A stretch of 64,000 nucleotides of DNA from a virus, in IMG/VR virus record IMGVR_UViG_3300035691_000003, positions 1 to 64,000 of that record; one strand, written 5' to 3'. Under the pieces are notes generated by a model, which did no database searches, had not been told where the DNA came from, and saw nothing but the letters and a program-made list of their open reading frames with translations. Positions 640 through 45,829 of this stretch are shown piece by piece; the first letter of the stretch is position 1, and every line of letters begins with the position of its first letter. The position numbers and the translations under genes are program-made.

Positions 640-2082
640 ATGGGAGGACCGGTTGTGCAAACTGAAGACGACATCCGCCGCCGCCGTGCATTTCAAGACG
701 CGCTGAACCGTGGGTTACAGGCACCAGCGTTGAAGCAGCCATCACCAACATCGTCCTTCATGCCCGGCGAATCGGCAGGTATTCCAACCGGCATCAAGCT
801 GGGTGGCATATCAAAACTCCCCGACCCACGCAACCTCGGCCTGTCGCTGCCGCAACCAGCCACCCCGCCCATCAACCTCGAAGATATGCAGCCGCCGACG
901 CCGAACGAACCAGTCGCCCCCGCCTCCAGCCCGCGCATCGGCTACTCGACCGCCGGGCTGACCGGGACCGACGCGCTGATTCAACGTCGCCGGGCACTGG
1001 AGGAGGCCGACCCTGAATCACAGGTGACAGCAGCCGGGGAAATCCTCCCACCCCGCAAGACCGGCCATCTGCGCGGTCTGGGCCAAGGTGCGCTCATCGG
1101 CCTCGGCACTGGCGACCCCGACCGGCCTCTCTACTCGCTGGGCCAGATGATAGGCGGCGCAGTCACCGGCGCAGTCTCCCCGCGCTCCGTCGCCAAGATG
1201 CAGCGGCGCTTTGACCTGGGCCAACTCGACACCGACCTGGCACGGGGGCTGAAGCTGGAGGGACTGGAGCAGGAGGTCCGTGGACCGAAGTGGGGCCAGA
1301 CCTCCACGCGGGTAGTGCGGGAAGGTGAGTATCCCGGTATCGAAGCAGGCACGGAGATTCGCGTGCGCGTCGATCCGCGTACCGGCTCCGTCACCGACAT
1401 CGTCGGACCAAACCAGAAGCCCGTCATCAGCGACCTTGCCAAGCGTCCGTCTGCTGGAGCGCCCCACTACGAGAAAGATGCTGACGGCTATATGGTGACA
1501 ATCCAGGGCGGACAGTCGAAGCGCGTGGTGGACGAGAACGGCAAGCCGCTGCAAATCAAACGTGGCAAGGACGACGAGGAGTATGTCGAAGTGACGGTCA
1601 ATGGCCGCACGTTGAAGGTCAGTCCATCGCAGGCGCTCACCTACTACGGTCAAATCGGCGCGCAGGAAACGAAGCTCACCACTGAGCAGGCGGAGCGCAA
1701 GGCGAAGGCTGAGGCGGCGCAACAGGAACTGGAGTCGTTGGAGACGGCGGAAGAAGCGGCGCGCGTGGAGAAGGACCGGGCCTATCAGACACTCGACGCC
1801 ATGCGCAAAGACCCCAATCTCGCCAAAGAAGACATCGCGCAGGCCGAAGCGGCAGCCAAGGCGGCGGACACTCAGTATCAGTCCTTCGGTGAAAAGAAAC
1901 GCGATGCCAAGCGGCGGATTACGGAGAATACAGTGGCGACACCGCCTCCAGTCTCCGCCGCCCAGCCCTACGCTGGACGGACGATGTCACGGGCCGATCT
2001 GGAACGGTACGCGAAGGACAAGGGGTTGAGTATCGAGGAAGCCGAGAAGCAGGTTCGCGCACAGGGGGTGCAGGTTCAGTGA
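640..2082 (+). CDS. Putative internal virion/ejection protein (480 aa)
   Basis: Pro-rich N-terminus, Gly-rich hydrophobic segment, coiled-coil C-terminus; lies just upstream of the large SLT-bearing protein. Confidence 0.55.
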   Translation: MGGPVVQTEDDIRRRRAFQDALNRGLQAPALKQPSPTSSFMPGESAGIPTGIKLGGISKLPDPRNLGLSLPQPATPPINLEDMQPPTPNEPVAPASSPRIGYSTAGLTGTDALIQRRRALEEADPESQVTAAGEILPPRKTGHLRGLGQGALIGLGTGDPDRPLYSLGQMIGGAVTGAVSPRSVAKMQRRFDLGQLDTDLARGLKLEGLEQEVRGPKWGQTSTRVVREGEYPGIEAGTEIRVRVDPRTGSVTDIVGPNQKPVISDLAKRPSAGAPHYEKDADGYMVTIQGGQSKRVVDENGKPLQIKRGKDDEEYVEVTVNGRTLKVSPSQALTYYGQIGAQETKLTTEQAERKAKAEAAQQELESLETAEEAARVEKDRAYQTLDAMRKDPNLAKEDIAQAEAAAKAADTQYQSFGEKKRDAKRRITENTVATPPPVSAAQPYAGRTMSRADLERYAKDKGLSIEEAEKQVRAQGVQVQ

Positions 2083-29675: not shown

Positions 29676-30653
29676 GTGAAGATCGGCCATATTTCAGCCT
29701 ATAACGGCAGCGGAATGCACCGCGTCGCGGAGTCGTTGGTAAAAGCCGAATGCGCCCTCGGCCTCGATTCACGACTGGTCAACATGCATGAGACAAACGC
29801 AGCGGAGTTGGATGAAGTCGCCACCTGCGACATCTTTGTGCCGCACACGCACTTTCCCAACGAGATTAAACGCCGCCTGACCAAGCCGCTGAAGATGGTG
29901 TTTATCTCGCACGGCACGCCCGAGTACATCGTGCAAAGCGCGTTCGAGGCCGGAAAGCACGGCTACGGGCATGGCGACGGGCTAATGCTCTGGATGCACT
30001 GGATGAAGACGGCGGATGCGGTTTGTACTTTCTGGCCCCGGCATCAGGCAATCATGCAGTCAATGTGCGATAAGGCCACCAAGGTTCACCTGCTCCCACT
30101 CGGCATGGACCACGATTTCTGGAAGGCGGGACCAAGCAAGGGGAAATTTGCTGGTAATCCATCGGTGATGACTTCAGAGAACAGCCACTTTATGAAATGG
30201 GCCTATGACCTGTTCATCGCGTGGCCCTGGGTTTACGACCAAGTCCCCGACGCCTGCTTGCACGCCACCTACGTCCCCACGGACCAGCATCGCTACTGGT
30301 TTCCGATTGTTAATCGCAACGGGGCCAGCTACGGGGCGCATATCAGCCCGCTGACATGGCAACATGACGAACTGCGAGGTATTCTCAAATCCATCGACTA
30401 CTACTGCAATCTCGTCCGCTACGGCGACTTCAACCATATGGGCTTGCAAGCGGCACTTTGCGGCGCGAAGGTCATCAGCTATCGCGGCAACCCTTTCGCC
30501 GACTACTGGCTTGATGAAGGAGACCAGCGGGACATGGCCCGGCAGCTTATCGCCATCTTCAAGGGTGAAGTGGAGCGGCGGGAGAAAGCGCCGATACCGC
30601 AGTTGAGCGAGATGGGGCAGGCGACGAAGGAGATCTACGAAAGGATTGCATGA
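29676..30653 (+). CDS. Glycosyltransferase (GT-B, GT4-like)
   Basis: MKIGHIS...SGMHRVAESL; HGTPE; GDFNHMGLQAALCGAKVISY resembles the E-x7-E region with D/Q substitutions. Confidence 0.75.
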   Translation: MKIGHISAYNGSGMHRVAESLVKAECALGLDSRLVNMHETNAAELDEVATCDIFVPHTHFPNEIKRRLTKPLKMVFISHGTPEYIVQSAFEAGKHGYGHGDGLMLWMHWMKTADAVCTFWPRHQAIMQSMCDKATKVHLLPLGMDHDFWKAGPSKGKFAGNPSVMTSENSHFMKWAYDLFIAWPWVYDQVPDACLHATYVPTDQHRYWFPIVNRNGASYGAHISPLTWQHDELRGILKSIDYYCNLVRYGDFNHMGLQAALCGAKVISYRGNPFADYWLDEGDQRDMARQLIAIFKGEVERREKAPIPQLSEMGQATKEIYERIA

Positions 30654-43355: not shown

Positions 43356-43832
43356 ATGCAAGAGAACCCGACAGTTCCTCATGTTCTAATACTGGTCTCG
43401 AACTTCATTACAGCAATCCTTTCAATTGGCGGAACCCTAACCGCTCTATGGTTTAAGGGGAGACGCGAGCCTGCCGAGGTAAGGCGCATAGACGCCGAGA
43501 CCCATAACCTGCAAGTCACCACAGAAATTGCCCCGATAGGAATCAGTCTCGAATTACTGCGAGAACTCCAGGCAGTCAGAAAGAAAGCTGAGGACCGTGC
43601 TGAGCAGTCGCTATTGAAGGAAGACCAGATGCGCGGGCAGATCCTCTTCTGGCGCAACAAGGCTGAAGAGTTGGATGGACAGTTGATTGAGTCTAAGGAA
43701 GAGGCCGCTCAGCTACAGACCCGCTATAACCTGAAAAAAGCCGAACTGGAAAAGGCGATGGGCCTACTGCAAATAAAGCACGTCAGCTACGGTGACGCGG
43801 ACCAGCCGAAAGATCGCAGCGGAGAAAAATAG
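43356..43832 (+). CDS. N-terminal TM plus coiled-coil protein (lysis-module type)
   Basis: Hydrophobic residues about 9-32 followed by heptads. Confidence 0.7.
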   Translation: MQENPTVPHVLILVSNFITAILSIGGTLTALWFKGRREPAEVRRIDAETHNLQVTTEIAPIGISLELLRELQAVRKKAEDRAEQSLLKEDQMRGQILFWRNKAEELDGQLIESKEEAAQLQTRYNLKKAELEKAMGLLQIKHVSYGDADQPKDRSGEK

Positions 43833-44054
43833 AGGCAGCACCCGCCTCCCACAGCCAGCACCACCTCGTCGTAAAAGGAGAACAATCTCGGAAACTTAGT
43901 CGTTCCGTTGGCTGGAAGTGTAGCACAGGTGGAGCGGGCGAGCAGATAGAAAGACGACGCCAGTCACCCGACGCCGCCTCCCATTCCAAAGTGGTCTAGG
44001 TCTGTAGATTTTTGCCTGGTTGTCTCCTCCTTTCAATTGATGGATTACGAACAC

Positions 44055-44426
44055 TGGTTGATTGCGTCGTGGATTCAAACCACGTTTGGGACTTCAGTAG
44101 TCAGGCACAGTCCCACCGTCAATAGGACAGATGCTGCTATCCACGCGAGCATGGTCGCCTGGGGTCCAACTCGGCCCGTTGCTTGCCGATTTTCACAGCA
44201 GTTCTCCCCACCTCAAGAAGTCTCTGGTCTCGCCGAATGGGCTTAGCGTGCTCCAGTAGGATTACTCCACTGGTCCACGGTACTAACGAGCCGCCGTGAA
44301 AGGTTGTACTAAGTGCTTAACACCGGAGGATCGTTACCTACCTCCCAGCCTTTCCCTCGTGCTCTCCCGCTGCACTCCTGAGTTCCTGTCACTTCCGAGC
44401 GCTTTCGTCAGAGCGCCACCGCAATC
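44055..44426 (-). ncRNA. 372-nt tRNA-like-ended large structured RNA
   Basis: GATTGCG/CGCAATC acceptor-like stem, D-like arm, T-arm CGTGG-TTTGAAT-CCACG, 3' ACCA, TATAAT 5 nt upstream. Confidence 0.75.
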
Positions 44427-44431
44427 AAAGA

Positions 44432-44437
44432 ATTATA
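44432..44437 (-). promoter_or_regulatory. -10 box for the 372-nt RNA
   Basis: Exact TATAAT; no good -35 at 17 bp. Confidence 0.5.
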
Positions 44438-44531
44438 ACGTGGACCACTCCCTCCGGCTTTCACGGAGCAGCGCCAAGGATTCCGATGACAAGGCACGCG
44501 CTTATCGCGCCAGTGGCCCACGAGATTCAGC

Positions 44532-44783
44532 CTAGTTCACAATCGGGCAACCATGGGCTTCCATGCACCCCTTGTAAATACCGGCGGCGTGCGTCACGCA
44601 TCCCTTGAACTGGTCTGGGGTTATATCGTCTCCGTAGACTATTACACAGCTGAGCATGTCGGCGTCGGCAAGGCCCTCACATGCGGCGTTAGCCTGATCG
44701 CAGGGAATAAACGCAGCCGATCCAGTGGGCGTGACTAGCAGCCCTATGGTGAGCAATGCCAGTATGATTAGTTTTCGTCTCAT
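44532..44783 (-). CDS. Small secreted Cys-rich protein
   Basis: AGGAG RBS; signal peptide MRRKLIILALLTIGLLVTPTGSAA; six Cys. Confidence 0.75.
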   Translation of the reverse strand: MRRKLIILALLTIGLLVTPTGSAAFIPCDQANAACEGLADADMLSCVIVYGDDITPDQFKGCVTHAAGIYKGCMEAHGCPIVN

Positions 44784-44821
44784 TAGTCTCTCCTGTCTAA
44801 AGGGTTAATGGTCAGGCAGTC

Positions 44822-45824
44822 TCTCAACCCACCAGTTCCGCCGTCACCGCACTCTACATTGTCACGTCTCCCGAATCGGCGACAGCCACCTCTACGCGGT
44901 GGGTTGAGAAGGGGGATTGCGCGGCCCCCGCAGGCGGTGGGTTCGACACGTTACGACCACCTCTCCCCGGTCTGTCCTCTCGTGCCAGAGTAAGCCGCGC
45001 AAACTTGATTCAATTGTCAATTCAACCTTGGACCACCGCCGCCACCTTTTCAGACGGCTTGGGGTTCATCGCCAAAGATGCCGTAACCGAGTGGCCCAAG
45101 GGTCGGTCGAGTAGGATGATTTCAAACCGCAAGTCCGAAGACCTACGATGAAGCAGGTGTTACCACTCTGCTCCATCCTACTCGACTGCGATTGCGCGGG
45201 GCCGGGCTTGATACCGGCTACGGCATGTCGAGTGGCGTTCTGCCGTGTTGTCACGGCTCTTAGCTAGCATCTTCGGAACCTGCCATGCCTTCCTATCCGA
45301 ATACTCAGTAGCGTTTCCTTCAACGCCGTCCGCGCAAATTCAGTTGTCAATGGCCGTTTGCAGTGGCTCAGGTCGCTCGGCGTCCTCGTTCTCGTGCCTA
45401 CCTCGCAGTTGACTCTACTGCTTCAGGCTTGTTTTTCCGAGATAAGGCAGATGGAGACGAGAGTCTTTACAGCCTCGCTCCACAGTCGTTTACCGTGGCT
45501 TTTACCGCCCTCAATGACCACTGCAAACATCTGATGCGGGACTTGTCTGGAGCGCCTTCGTTCTCCCCGCTGGTGTTACCAGCCAGCGAGTCCCGCGCAA
45601 CTATGCCGCGACTTGTATTAACGGCGCTCGCGGCCAACGACGAGCGGTTCAACGTAGCCGCCACCGTCGGGTTCTCCGTTCCCGCTATCTGGTCATCCTG
45701 TCAATTCAGGCGGTTGACGGGAGCACTTTAATTACATCGTCCTCCCCAGATCACTGGTGCCCCACCCATCGTTCAGTGTCCGCTTGCGCGGTGAATGCTC
45801 AGTCTATTGACGAGCGAGTGGGGC
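44822..45824 (-). ncRNA. Tandem array of stem-closed structured RNAs, some tRNA-like
   Basis: Successive inverted-repeat-bounded units: 44822-44909, 44917-45002, 45026-45101, 45106-45186, 45192-45337, 45356-45528, 45536-45596, 45759-45824; most diagnostic G-U pairs favour - strand. Confidence 0.7.
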
Positions 45825-45829
45825 GTGAT

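Follow-up and report, generated by a model that had tools for sequence, protein, structure and literature searches.

The window analysed here is the first 64 kb (64,000 nt) of a 74,840-nt virus record in IMG/VR, IMGVR_UViG_3300035691_000003 (G000), which has a CheckV completeness rating of 100%. Its plus-strand genes, mainly structural, reach position 43832, and its minus-strand genes run from approximately 64 kb down to 44532. Between the two, on the minus strand, lies the subject of this analysis: a putative gene for a large non-coding RNA with termini resembling those of a transfer RNA (tRNA) and an encoded CCA end. A homologue is present in a second record, IMGVR_UViG_3300005549_000023 (G002, 30.7 kb); the source of G000 and of the other carriers of the RNA sequence is soil or rhizosphere metagenomes. 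Few of the G000 proteins are recognisable (endonuclease VII, a PIF1-like helicase, a PD-(D/E)XK nuclease, an AAA_24 protein and PAPS reductase). The phage looks lytic, because searches for an integrase or resolvase in G000 returned none.

The motifs that an earlier note had listed on the minus strand between 44055 and 44437 (TATAAT, a 5-nt gap TCTTT, GATTGCG, the arms, the hairpins, the T-arm and CCA) are all present. Read from 5' to 3', the parts of the locus are as follows.

44432..44437, minus strand: TATAAT hexamer, a doubtful promoter; not kept in G002, with no -35 and no promoter call.
44427..44431, minus strand: leader TCTTT, the same in G000 and G002, upstream of which everything differs; soil contigs extend to 44431.
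44055..44428, minus strand: the full extent of the conserved RNA gene; sequence shared with the G002 homologue and soil contigs starts at 44431 and stops at 44055.
44420..44427, minus strand: acceptor-like 5' strand UGAUUGCG, pairing with 44059-44066 (mean pair probability 0.99 in both homologues); invariant.
44398..44417, minus strand: D-like hairpin GGCGCU-CUGACGAA-AGCGCU, 2 nt (linker GU) past the acceptor strand; conserved.
44392..44397, minus strand: junction CGGAA(G), the final conserved letters of the 5' block.
44121..44391, minus strand: variable insert (the cargo), 271 nt in G000 and 161 nt in G002, mostly unalignable; fold z = -0.67.
44115..44120, minus strand: junction GACGGU, conserved, opening the 3' block.
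44088..44114, minus strand: anticodon-arm-like hairpin GGGACU-15 nt-AGUCCC, with invariant stems and a hypervariable loop centre.
44068..44084, minus strand: T-arm CGUGG-UUUGAAU-CCACG (pair probability 0.95-0.97), invariant in G002 and in the soil contigs listed.
44059..44067, minus strand: unpaired A (44067) and acceptor 3' strand CGCAAUCA, read from the sequence and the pair probabilities.
44055..44058, minus strand: encoded ACCA tail, directly after which the conservation with G002 ends.

Other motifs named previously are a GUAA hairpin (44273-44253) and two hairpins with loops carrying TAACGA (44345-44325) and TCGTTA (44298-44276).

The boundaries of the gene are set by conservation. The conserved unit, of ~377 bp, begins 5 nt ahead of the acceptor strand and runs through the encoded CCA. 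In the G002 counterpart, which is 263 nt long, the 5' 36-41 nt (including the 5-nt leader) are 97% identical to G000 and the 3' 66-69 nt are 91-92% identical, with identity ending at the A of CCA. By contrast, no significant protein similarity between the two phages can be found within 14 kb around the gene, the neighbours of which differ. Contigs from four public soil runs, one of which is an RNA library and one of which yielded 46 contigs, match at 80-99%, only within 44055-44431 and nowhere in the flanks; some of them skip 44257-44363 and similar blocks of the insert, with joins across 107-163 nt. Soil runs beyond those four contained small shares of the sequence words only, on which no claim about habitat is based, and nothing is concluded from parts of the stretch without soil-contig cover. 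All substitutions in the conserved ends, in G002 and the soil contigs alike, fall in predicted loops: the D-like loop, the 15-nt loop or the junction. In the D-like hairpin (as DNA, GGCGCT-CTGACGAA-AGCGCT) the sole change between G000 and G002 is an A>G substitution in the loop, and in the 15-nt loop six of the seven central letters are changed in G002, with soil variants at 44098, 44099, 44101 and 44107.

Sense frames are all closed in the RNA. As far as its sequence can tell, this locus is a discrete, bounded gene for a non-coding RNA, the mature form of which is predicted to extend from 44426/44427 to 44055 (372-373 nt). The tRNA-like termini and encoded CCA described in the earlier note are thus conserved in both G002 and the soil runs, and the ends proposed there (44426-44428 and 44055) coincide with the limits of conservation. 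A coding reading was also considered and rejected: the antisense open reading frames (ORFs) cross the conserved blocks in different frames in G000 and G002.

The genomic setting of the two copies has little in common. The G002 copy of the RNA gene is on its own, lacking the array of small RNAs and the gene for a cysteine-rich (Cys) peptide that precede it in G000. A relative of G002, G019, has 985 nt of unrelated small ORFs at the corresponding slot, which is bounded by two anchors of 40 nt, and comparison with G019 reveals that the G002 RNA gene truncates an ORF starting in the first anchor. Given this exchange, and because the settings differ in two phages sharing almost no proteins, the RNA gene behaves as an accessory cassette. 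The anchors that bound the swap slot are 36-42 nt and 97% identical when locus L023 (2217-2678) is compared with L042 (1621-2683). The slot lies upstream of small and large terminase-like genes, and holds the RNA gene and a 30-codon ORF in G002 and small Cys-rich ORFs in G019.

Further members of the family proved hard to find. Exact and degenerate patterns describing the shell of the RNA, applied to IMG/VR, Joint Genome Institute (JGI) metagenomes and 185,579 species genomes, retrieved G002 only, under two names, and three further chance matches lacking T-stem pairing; one of these patterns failed to retrieve G002 itself, apparently since the stored contig ends inside the RNA. Synteny via the neighbouring gene for a 158-aa protein led to 25 relatives and six IMG/VR loci, of which G000 alone carries the RNA at that place. 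No additional copy was detected within 3 kb at 79 loci reached through the G002 terminase, nor in the whole records of 49-50 related phages (by BLAST and a covariance model of the 3' module), and the window contains no paralogue.

The composite of T-arm and acceptor helix rarely arises by chance. A scan for a 5-bp T stem, a T-loop matching TYNRANN, 0-1 nt, a 7/8-bp closure located 60-600 nt upstream and NCCA matches nothing in ~700 kb of related phage DNA apart from this RNA and its homologue; among 200 shuffles of the 75-kb genome, 5 gave a match of any kind. The acceptor and T-arm helices have pair probabilities of 0.95-0.99 in both the G000 and G002 RNAs, and the minihelix they form with ACCA is robust. 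The letters originally given for these arms stand, with a correction: the A at 44067 is unpaired between the T stem and the acceptor strand, and a proper N73-CCA tail needs the 8-bp register UGAUUGCG/CGCAAUCA, in which the last T of the leader is able to pair as the eighth acceptor pair; the 7-bp register leaves AACCA.

The remainder of the fold is less clear. For the whole RNA the comparison with shuffled sequences gives z = -1.59, such that thermodynamics alone is unimpressive. The sequence of the D-like stem claimed in the earlier note is conserved, but the stem has a pair probability of 0.84 in G002 and of 0.00 in G000, the insert being a competitor for its letters in the latter; that of the GGGACU/AGUCCC hairpin is 0.46 in G000 and 0.04 in G002. 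The kissing loop proposed between the TAACGA and TCGTTA loops fares similarly: both loops exist, but G002 does not preserve the 6-nt complementarity as it stands in G000, and comparison lends the pairing no support.

At the junction, CGGAA(G) could be the 5' strand of an analogue of the anticodon stem, with CUACUG (44100-44095) as its partner, an arrangement used by relaxed ARAGORN models and fitting the layout of T5 RNA2. It is without statistical support: neither this stem nor its extension into the variable loop performs better than swapped partners or shuffles. The longer helix, joining the first part of the insert to the variable loop, appeared compensatory by eye. It was dropped as evidence because swapped partners pair equally well and shuffles reach its score in 577 of 2000 trials for G000 and 52 of 2000 for G002. 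The two junction models, this stem and the GGGACU/AGUCCC hairpin, cannot both hold in full, on steric grounds that are argued rather than computed. The insert may take the place of the anticodon loop, or it may lie between a D arm and an arm resembling that of the anticodon. Two sequence resemblances were likewise set aside: the 8-letter word CUCGUUAG common to both inserts, of which ~0.7 such matches are estimated to occur by chance, and the likeness of GAGGGAAAGG to the P4 strand of RNase P, which has neither Rfam support nor a complementary 3' strand.

The RNA is neither a transfer-messenger RNA (tmRNA) nor a working tRNA. By ARAGORN, the window and three related phage records are free of tRNA and tmRNA genes, and the locus gives no tmRNA even at a 60% threshold (-ps60). 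The tmRNA model RF00023 has no match at E<=10 in the whole phage, with 14/14 control genomes positive, and three-frame translations of the two inserts have no frame, stop context or peptide in common. This agrees with the earlier view that the RNA is not a canonical tmRNA, as does the third acceptor pair, which is U-A in the 7-bp register and A-U in the 8-bp register and hence not the G3.U70 determinant of alanine; in neither register does the acceptor stem contain a G.U pair. Of the letters of the tRNA core, U8, A14, G18G19 and C56 are absent, the linker being GU, the D-loop CUGACGAA having no GG and the T-loop being UUUGAAU, which retains U54 and A58 and carries U at position 56 where tRNAs have C. 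The candidate anticodon-type loop is 15 nt rather than 7 nt long. Whole-genome searches for group I introns (RF00028, E<=10) and tRNA (RF00005) were empty, with control genomes positive.

No other described family accounts for the locus. Rfam 15 returned nothing at gathering thresholds, nothing relevant at E<=10 on the locus and no family on the RNA itself. The covariance-model check that had been suggested against GOLLD, ROOL and YrlA accordingly identifies none of them: no match at E<=10 was obtained to GOLLD, ROOL or the other large phage-associated RNAs in Rfam, nor to YrlA or Y RNA, and the phage has no Ro/TROVE gene.

The absence of tRNA genes is general to these phages: by ARAGORN there are none in G000, G002 or a further relative, G001 (IMGVR_UViG_3300035088_000004, locus L002), two of these three records being rated complete at 64-75 kb, and RF00005 likewise finds none in G000, despite an array of folded RNAs resembling a tRNA cluster. 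The RNA is the last unit of this array, which spans ~1.8 kb in all and closes at a terminator. The features concerned are listed below.

44441..45829, minus strand: array of small RNA units, each closed by a stem, over ~1.4 kb that is nearly devoid of ORFs; fold z down to -8.65.
44026..44034, minus strand: Shine-Dalgarno-like GAAAGGAGG, ~20 nt past the CCA, with no start codon behind it in G000.
43952..43969, minus strand: terminator-like hairpin ending the leftward transcription unit, a terminator call ~85 nt beyond the RNA.

Several units are much more stable than their shuffled sequences, in line with a cluster of structured RNAs; the fold z-scores of individual units are -8.65 (45106-45186), -4.92 (44822-44909), -3.04 (45026-45101) and -2.65 (45190-45339). 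Within 44441-45829 there is no ARAGORN or Rfam match and no promoter or terminator call, and no other terminator and no promoter are called between 44400 and 46400. The TATAAT hexamer noted earlier as part of the gene does exist, but it is not conserved in G002 and no -35 was found; because of this, and because the preceding unit ends 14 nt upstream, the RNA is more likely to be cut from a long transcript ending at the hairpin 43969-43952.

Several observations on the array itself can be added. The 81-nt unit at 45106-45186 (minus strand) is closed by a perfect helix of 13 bp and includes two hairpins, one resembling a D-arm (loop AGUGGUAACAC) and the other capped by UUCG; its unpaired UUUGAAAU is similar to the T-loop of the 372-nt RNA, and the unit may be a mimic of a tRNA elbow that lacks a CCA end. 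The 79-nt unit at 44441-44519 (minus strand) is closed by GGGCCAC/GUGGUCC, with a wobble of the G3.U70 type and an A after it, and its z-score of -1.55 is unexceptional. The sole interruption of the array is an 83-codon gene at 44532-44783 (minus strand) for a signal-peptide-bearing, Cys-rich peptide that is unrecognised by PHROGs and Pfam.

The explanation we favour, with a probability of roughly 0.6, is that the gene encodes a non-decoding, stable RNA in the shape of a tRNA, released by RNase P, trimmed to its CCA, stabilised by its top half and active through its insert and hypervariable loop. The array would be transcribed as a single RNA, in which host RNase P would cleave at the 5' end of the acceptor helix and host exonucleases would remove the 3' trailer back to the encoded CCA, an end that the CCA-adding enzyme might keep in repair. 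Substrates of RNase P need little beyond an acceptor/T minihelix with RCCA. Because RNase P, the exonucleases and the CCA-adding enzyme would all act there, the tRNA-like top half could be a handle for processing and stability, and perhaps also bait for tRNA-binding proteins of the host. Specificity would then lie with the working part of the RNA, namely the variable insert together with the hypervariable 15-nt loop, which would pair with a target or bind a protein. What the sequences show is the conservation of the gene, its limits, its motif and its mobility; processing, stability and any target are what we infer in this scheme.

A number of points count against this explanation. RNase P or the CCA-adding enzyme might fail to recognise the RNA, because U8, A14, G18G19 and C56 are missing and the stacking of the acceptor on the T stem is broken by the extra A. 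Between the homologues, the folding model is inconsistent for the D-like arm and the GGGACU/AGUCCC hairpin, and the insert folds no better than shuffles in either (z = -0.67 in G000 and +0.62 in G002), so that the structured cargo envisaged in the earlier note, which moreover differs in length and sequence between the homologues, does not hold up. With a total of two known full-length sequences, none of the helices is supported by true covariation. The predicted ends are deduced from the limits of conservation rather than from mapped transcript ends, and the match in the RNA library is a 195-nt contig of a relative that may be DNA carry-over. Finally, blastn against cultured phages (50,697 phage records) and plasmids produced no match to the RNA, the T4 and T5 RNAs included, and a host search with the terminase-like protein across species genomes gave no match.

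A bolder form of this explanation is considered tentative and rather doubtful. It would see here a large, modular class of phage RNA, in which a CCA-ended minihelix, possibly charged or used by host tRNA enzymes, is combined with exchangeable domains; the hypervariable 15-nt loop, presented by an invariant hairpin next to the T-arm, would be a guide or decoy aimed at some target in the host, for instance a defence nuclease directed at tRNAs, and the cassette would have spread among unrelated soil phages.

Four other explanations have to be set against that of a stable, non-decoding RNA. The one that survives best, while unlikely, is a tRNA or tRNA-like gene with a removed intervening sequence, leaving a product of ~85-100 nt in one or two pieces. 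The conserved ends sum to ~105 nt, and the middle varies and loses blocks, much as would be expected of such a gene. Unexplained tRNA introns occur in Lak megaphages (PMC6784885), and among the proteins of the relative G001 is one that resembles RNA ligases and has a KxDG motif; tblastn, however, finds no homologue of this protein in G000. When the ARAGORN threshold is relaxed to 85% and introns are allowed, both RNAs are scored as intron-tRNAs, but the calls conflict: Gly-CCC with the insert at 35/36 in G002, as opposed to Val-GAC with the insert at 39/40 in G000. Because anticodons and insert positions differ between the homologues, we take these calls to be artefacts of lowering the thresholds; both models lack a canonical anticodon loop and the core tertiary letters, and at default thresholds, with introns allowed, no tRNA is called at the locus. 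Nor does Rfam detect a group I core at E<=10; the RNA is not a tRNA with a group I intron. Known group I introns exceed 161-173 nt, and bulge-helix-bulge (BHB) splicing is not known in bacteria.

Marginally less likely is that the locus forms the structured 3' end of a long transcript covering the array and the peptide gene, acting in cis to protect the transcript or to regulate a neighbour. Its lack of a convincing promoter of its own, its position 14 nt past the preceding unit and ~85 nt ahead of the terminator, and the Shine-Dalgarno-like motif downstream in several phages are all consistent with such a role. On the other hand, the G002 copy has neither array nor Cys-peptide gene beside it, conservation is restricted to the RNA unit, and an encoded CCA at the exact limit of conservation is the mark of a released 3' end of the tRNA type.

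Lower again is the probability that there is no working RNA, the locus being selfish or relic DNA: a cassette resembling a miniature inverted-repeat transposable element (MITE), bounded by inverted repeats of 9 bp, a remnant attachment site copied from a tRNA-like gene of the host, or a piece of some coding gene. The unrelated sites occupied in two phages, the small ORF interrupted in G002 relative to G019, the many variant copies within one soil run and the termini TTGATTGCG/CGCAATCAA, which are inverted repeats, would suit a mobile element. Yet there is one copy per genome and no flanking target duplication, and G000, a complete genome, lacks an integrase or resolvase. The pattern of T-arm and CCA was found in no host genome among the 185,579 species, conservation ends exactly at the CCA, and changes spare the stems. 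With respect to a coding origin, 26 nt of the 3' block match a D5-like primase ORF in another soil phage, G018, at 92%, but the match has E ~0.025 after 49 records, the gene is in neither G000 nor G002, and the similarity is judged to be chance. It lies at 1501-1525 (minus strand) of locus L107, where GGGACUGUGCCUGACUACUGAA and its surroundings align with codons for GGLCLTTE, just before the Walker A motif.

Least probable by some distance is a highly divergent tmRNA, used to rescue or hijack stalled ribosomes and holding a tag template in its insert, since against its tmRNA-like size, its acceptor/T-arm domain with discriminator A and CCA, and its conserved ends around a variable middle stand the empty ARAGORN search at 60%, the lack of any match to RF00023 and its clan at E<=10 with all controls positive, the absence of G3.U70 in both registers, the presence of a D-like hairpin, inserts without a common frame or stop context, and the lack of SmpB in either phage record.

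The corresponding region of G001 contains some related features. A similar Cys-rich peptide gene is found there at the syntenic place (L002 ~5163-4889, minus strand), and between it and the convergent gene for the 158-aa protein lies a different non-coding stretch of ~320-420 nt (L002 4545-4862, minus strand). This stretch has a fold z of -2.59 and no Rfam match, and may be another large RNA in the same slot. Approximately 1 kb upstream of it, at L002 ~6552-5940 (minus strand), G001 encodes the ligase-like protein mentioned above, which has ~204 aa, a KIDGT (KxDG) motif of the kind usual in RNA/DNA ligases, and no homologue in G000 by tblastn.

The motif GAAAGGAGG occurs after the RNA, or after the syntenic non-coding stretch, in four phages (window 44026-44034; L004 1569-1585; L002 ~4530; L019 ~4600), and has a start codon behind it only in G002 (the 30-codon ORF) and L019 (4 codons). 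In the window it has a weak Rfam match to the Caulobacter small RNA CC2171, with an E-value of 0.03, below the cut-off.

The closest known counterparts are in classical phages. T4 rnaC and rnaD and T5 RNA1 and RNA2, located within tRNA clusters, carry annotations as stable RNAs that are small or tRNA-like and whose function is unknown, and the RNA of G000 was compared with T5 RNA2 (AY543070, 32959-33083), T5 RNA1 (30501-30644 of the same record) and T4 rnaC, species 1 RNA (AF158101, 70908-71046). Like it, these three are encoded by phages among other small stable RNA genes, have an acceptor-like terminal helix adjoining a 5-bp T-arm with a 7-nt loop in their predicted folds, and carry non-tRNA sequence in place of the anticodon region. 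T5 RNA2 also shares the 8-bp terminal helix, the 2-nt linker and a D-type hairpin with an 8-nt loop; its fold continues with a stem closing an insert of ~50 nt and then the T-arm. The differences are that the insert here is four to six times longer (271 nt compared with ~40-70) and varies between homologues, that the T-loop has U at position 56, the D-loop no GG and the T and acceptor stems an unpaired A between them, that the CCA is encoded in a phage without true tRNA genes, and that blastn detects no sequence similarity. By analogy of layout, with no claim of common descent, the RNA resembles a much enlarged relative of the T4 and T5 stable RNAs. The kind is therefore not wholly new, the same layout being annotated in both of those phages, while a literature search returned no description of such large tRNA-like forms.

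Other comparisons are more distant. tmRNAs (RF00023 and its clan) are likewise of ~370 nt, with an acceptor/T domain ending in A73-CCA and conserved ends around a variable middle, but differ from this RNA in having G3.U70, no D-like hairpin, a tag frame and a model that fails to match here, and no SmpB is encoded by the phage. Neither G000 nor G002 encodes a reverse transcriptase, Ro/TROVE protein or CCA-adding enzyme either. Intron-bearing tRNA genes, whether those with bacterial group I introns in the anticodon loop or those of Lak, also place tRNA-type ends around a long foreign middle; here, by contrast, removal of the middle would leave no decodable tRNA, there is no group I core, and the intron calls at relaxed thresholds disagree. 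Among published cases the phage-borne, unexplained tRNA introns of Lak megaphages, termed 'enigmatic', nonetheless come nearest (PMC6784885).

The gene is of interest in several respects. Non-coding RNAs of more than 300 nt outside any family are rare. The boundaries of this gene are clear, its conservation in two phages that share almost no proteins far exceeds that of the surrounding proteins, and it is present in several soil studies. The 50-year-old puzzle of the T4 and T5 stable RNAs is extended to a larger, modular form in phages without tRNAs.

Two further systems can be compared with this RNA. YrlA-type Y RNAs, according to what Chen et al. reportedly described in 2014, are non-coding RNAs with a tRNA-mimicking module that occur in phages too; in them the 5' and 3' ends form a Ro-binding stem, as opposed to an acceptor stem with CCA. 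In the engineered tRNA scaffold that Ponchon and Dardel are said to have introduced in 2007, a foreign RNA is placed in the anticodon region and the tRNA machinery of the host processes and stabilises it. The mechanism is as proposed here, but those scaffolds are man-made and have a fully canonical tRNA body. Should tRNA-shaped ends in these phages indeed carry exchangeable domains, it would imply that phages exploit the tRNA-processing machinery of their hosts for stable effector RNAs, and the RNA described here would be a natural counterpart to the engineered scaffolds.

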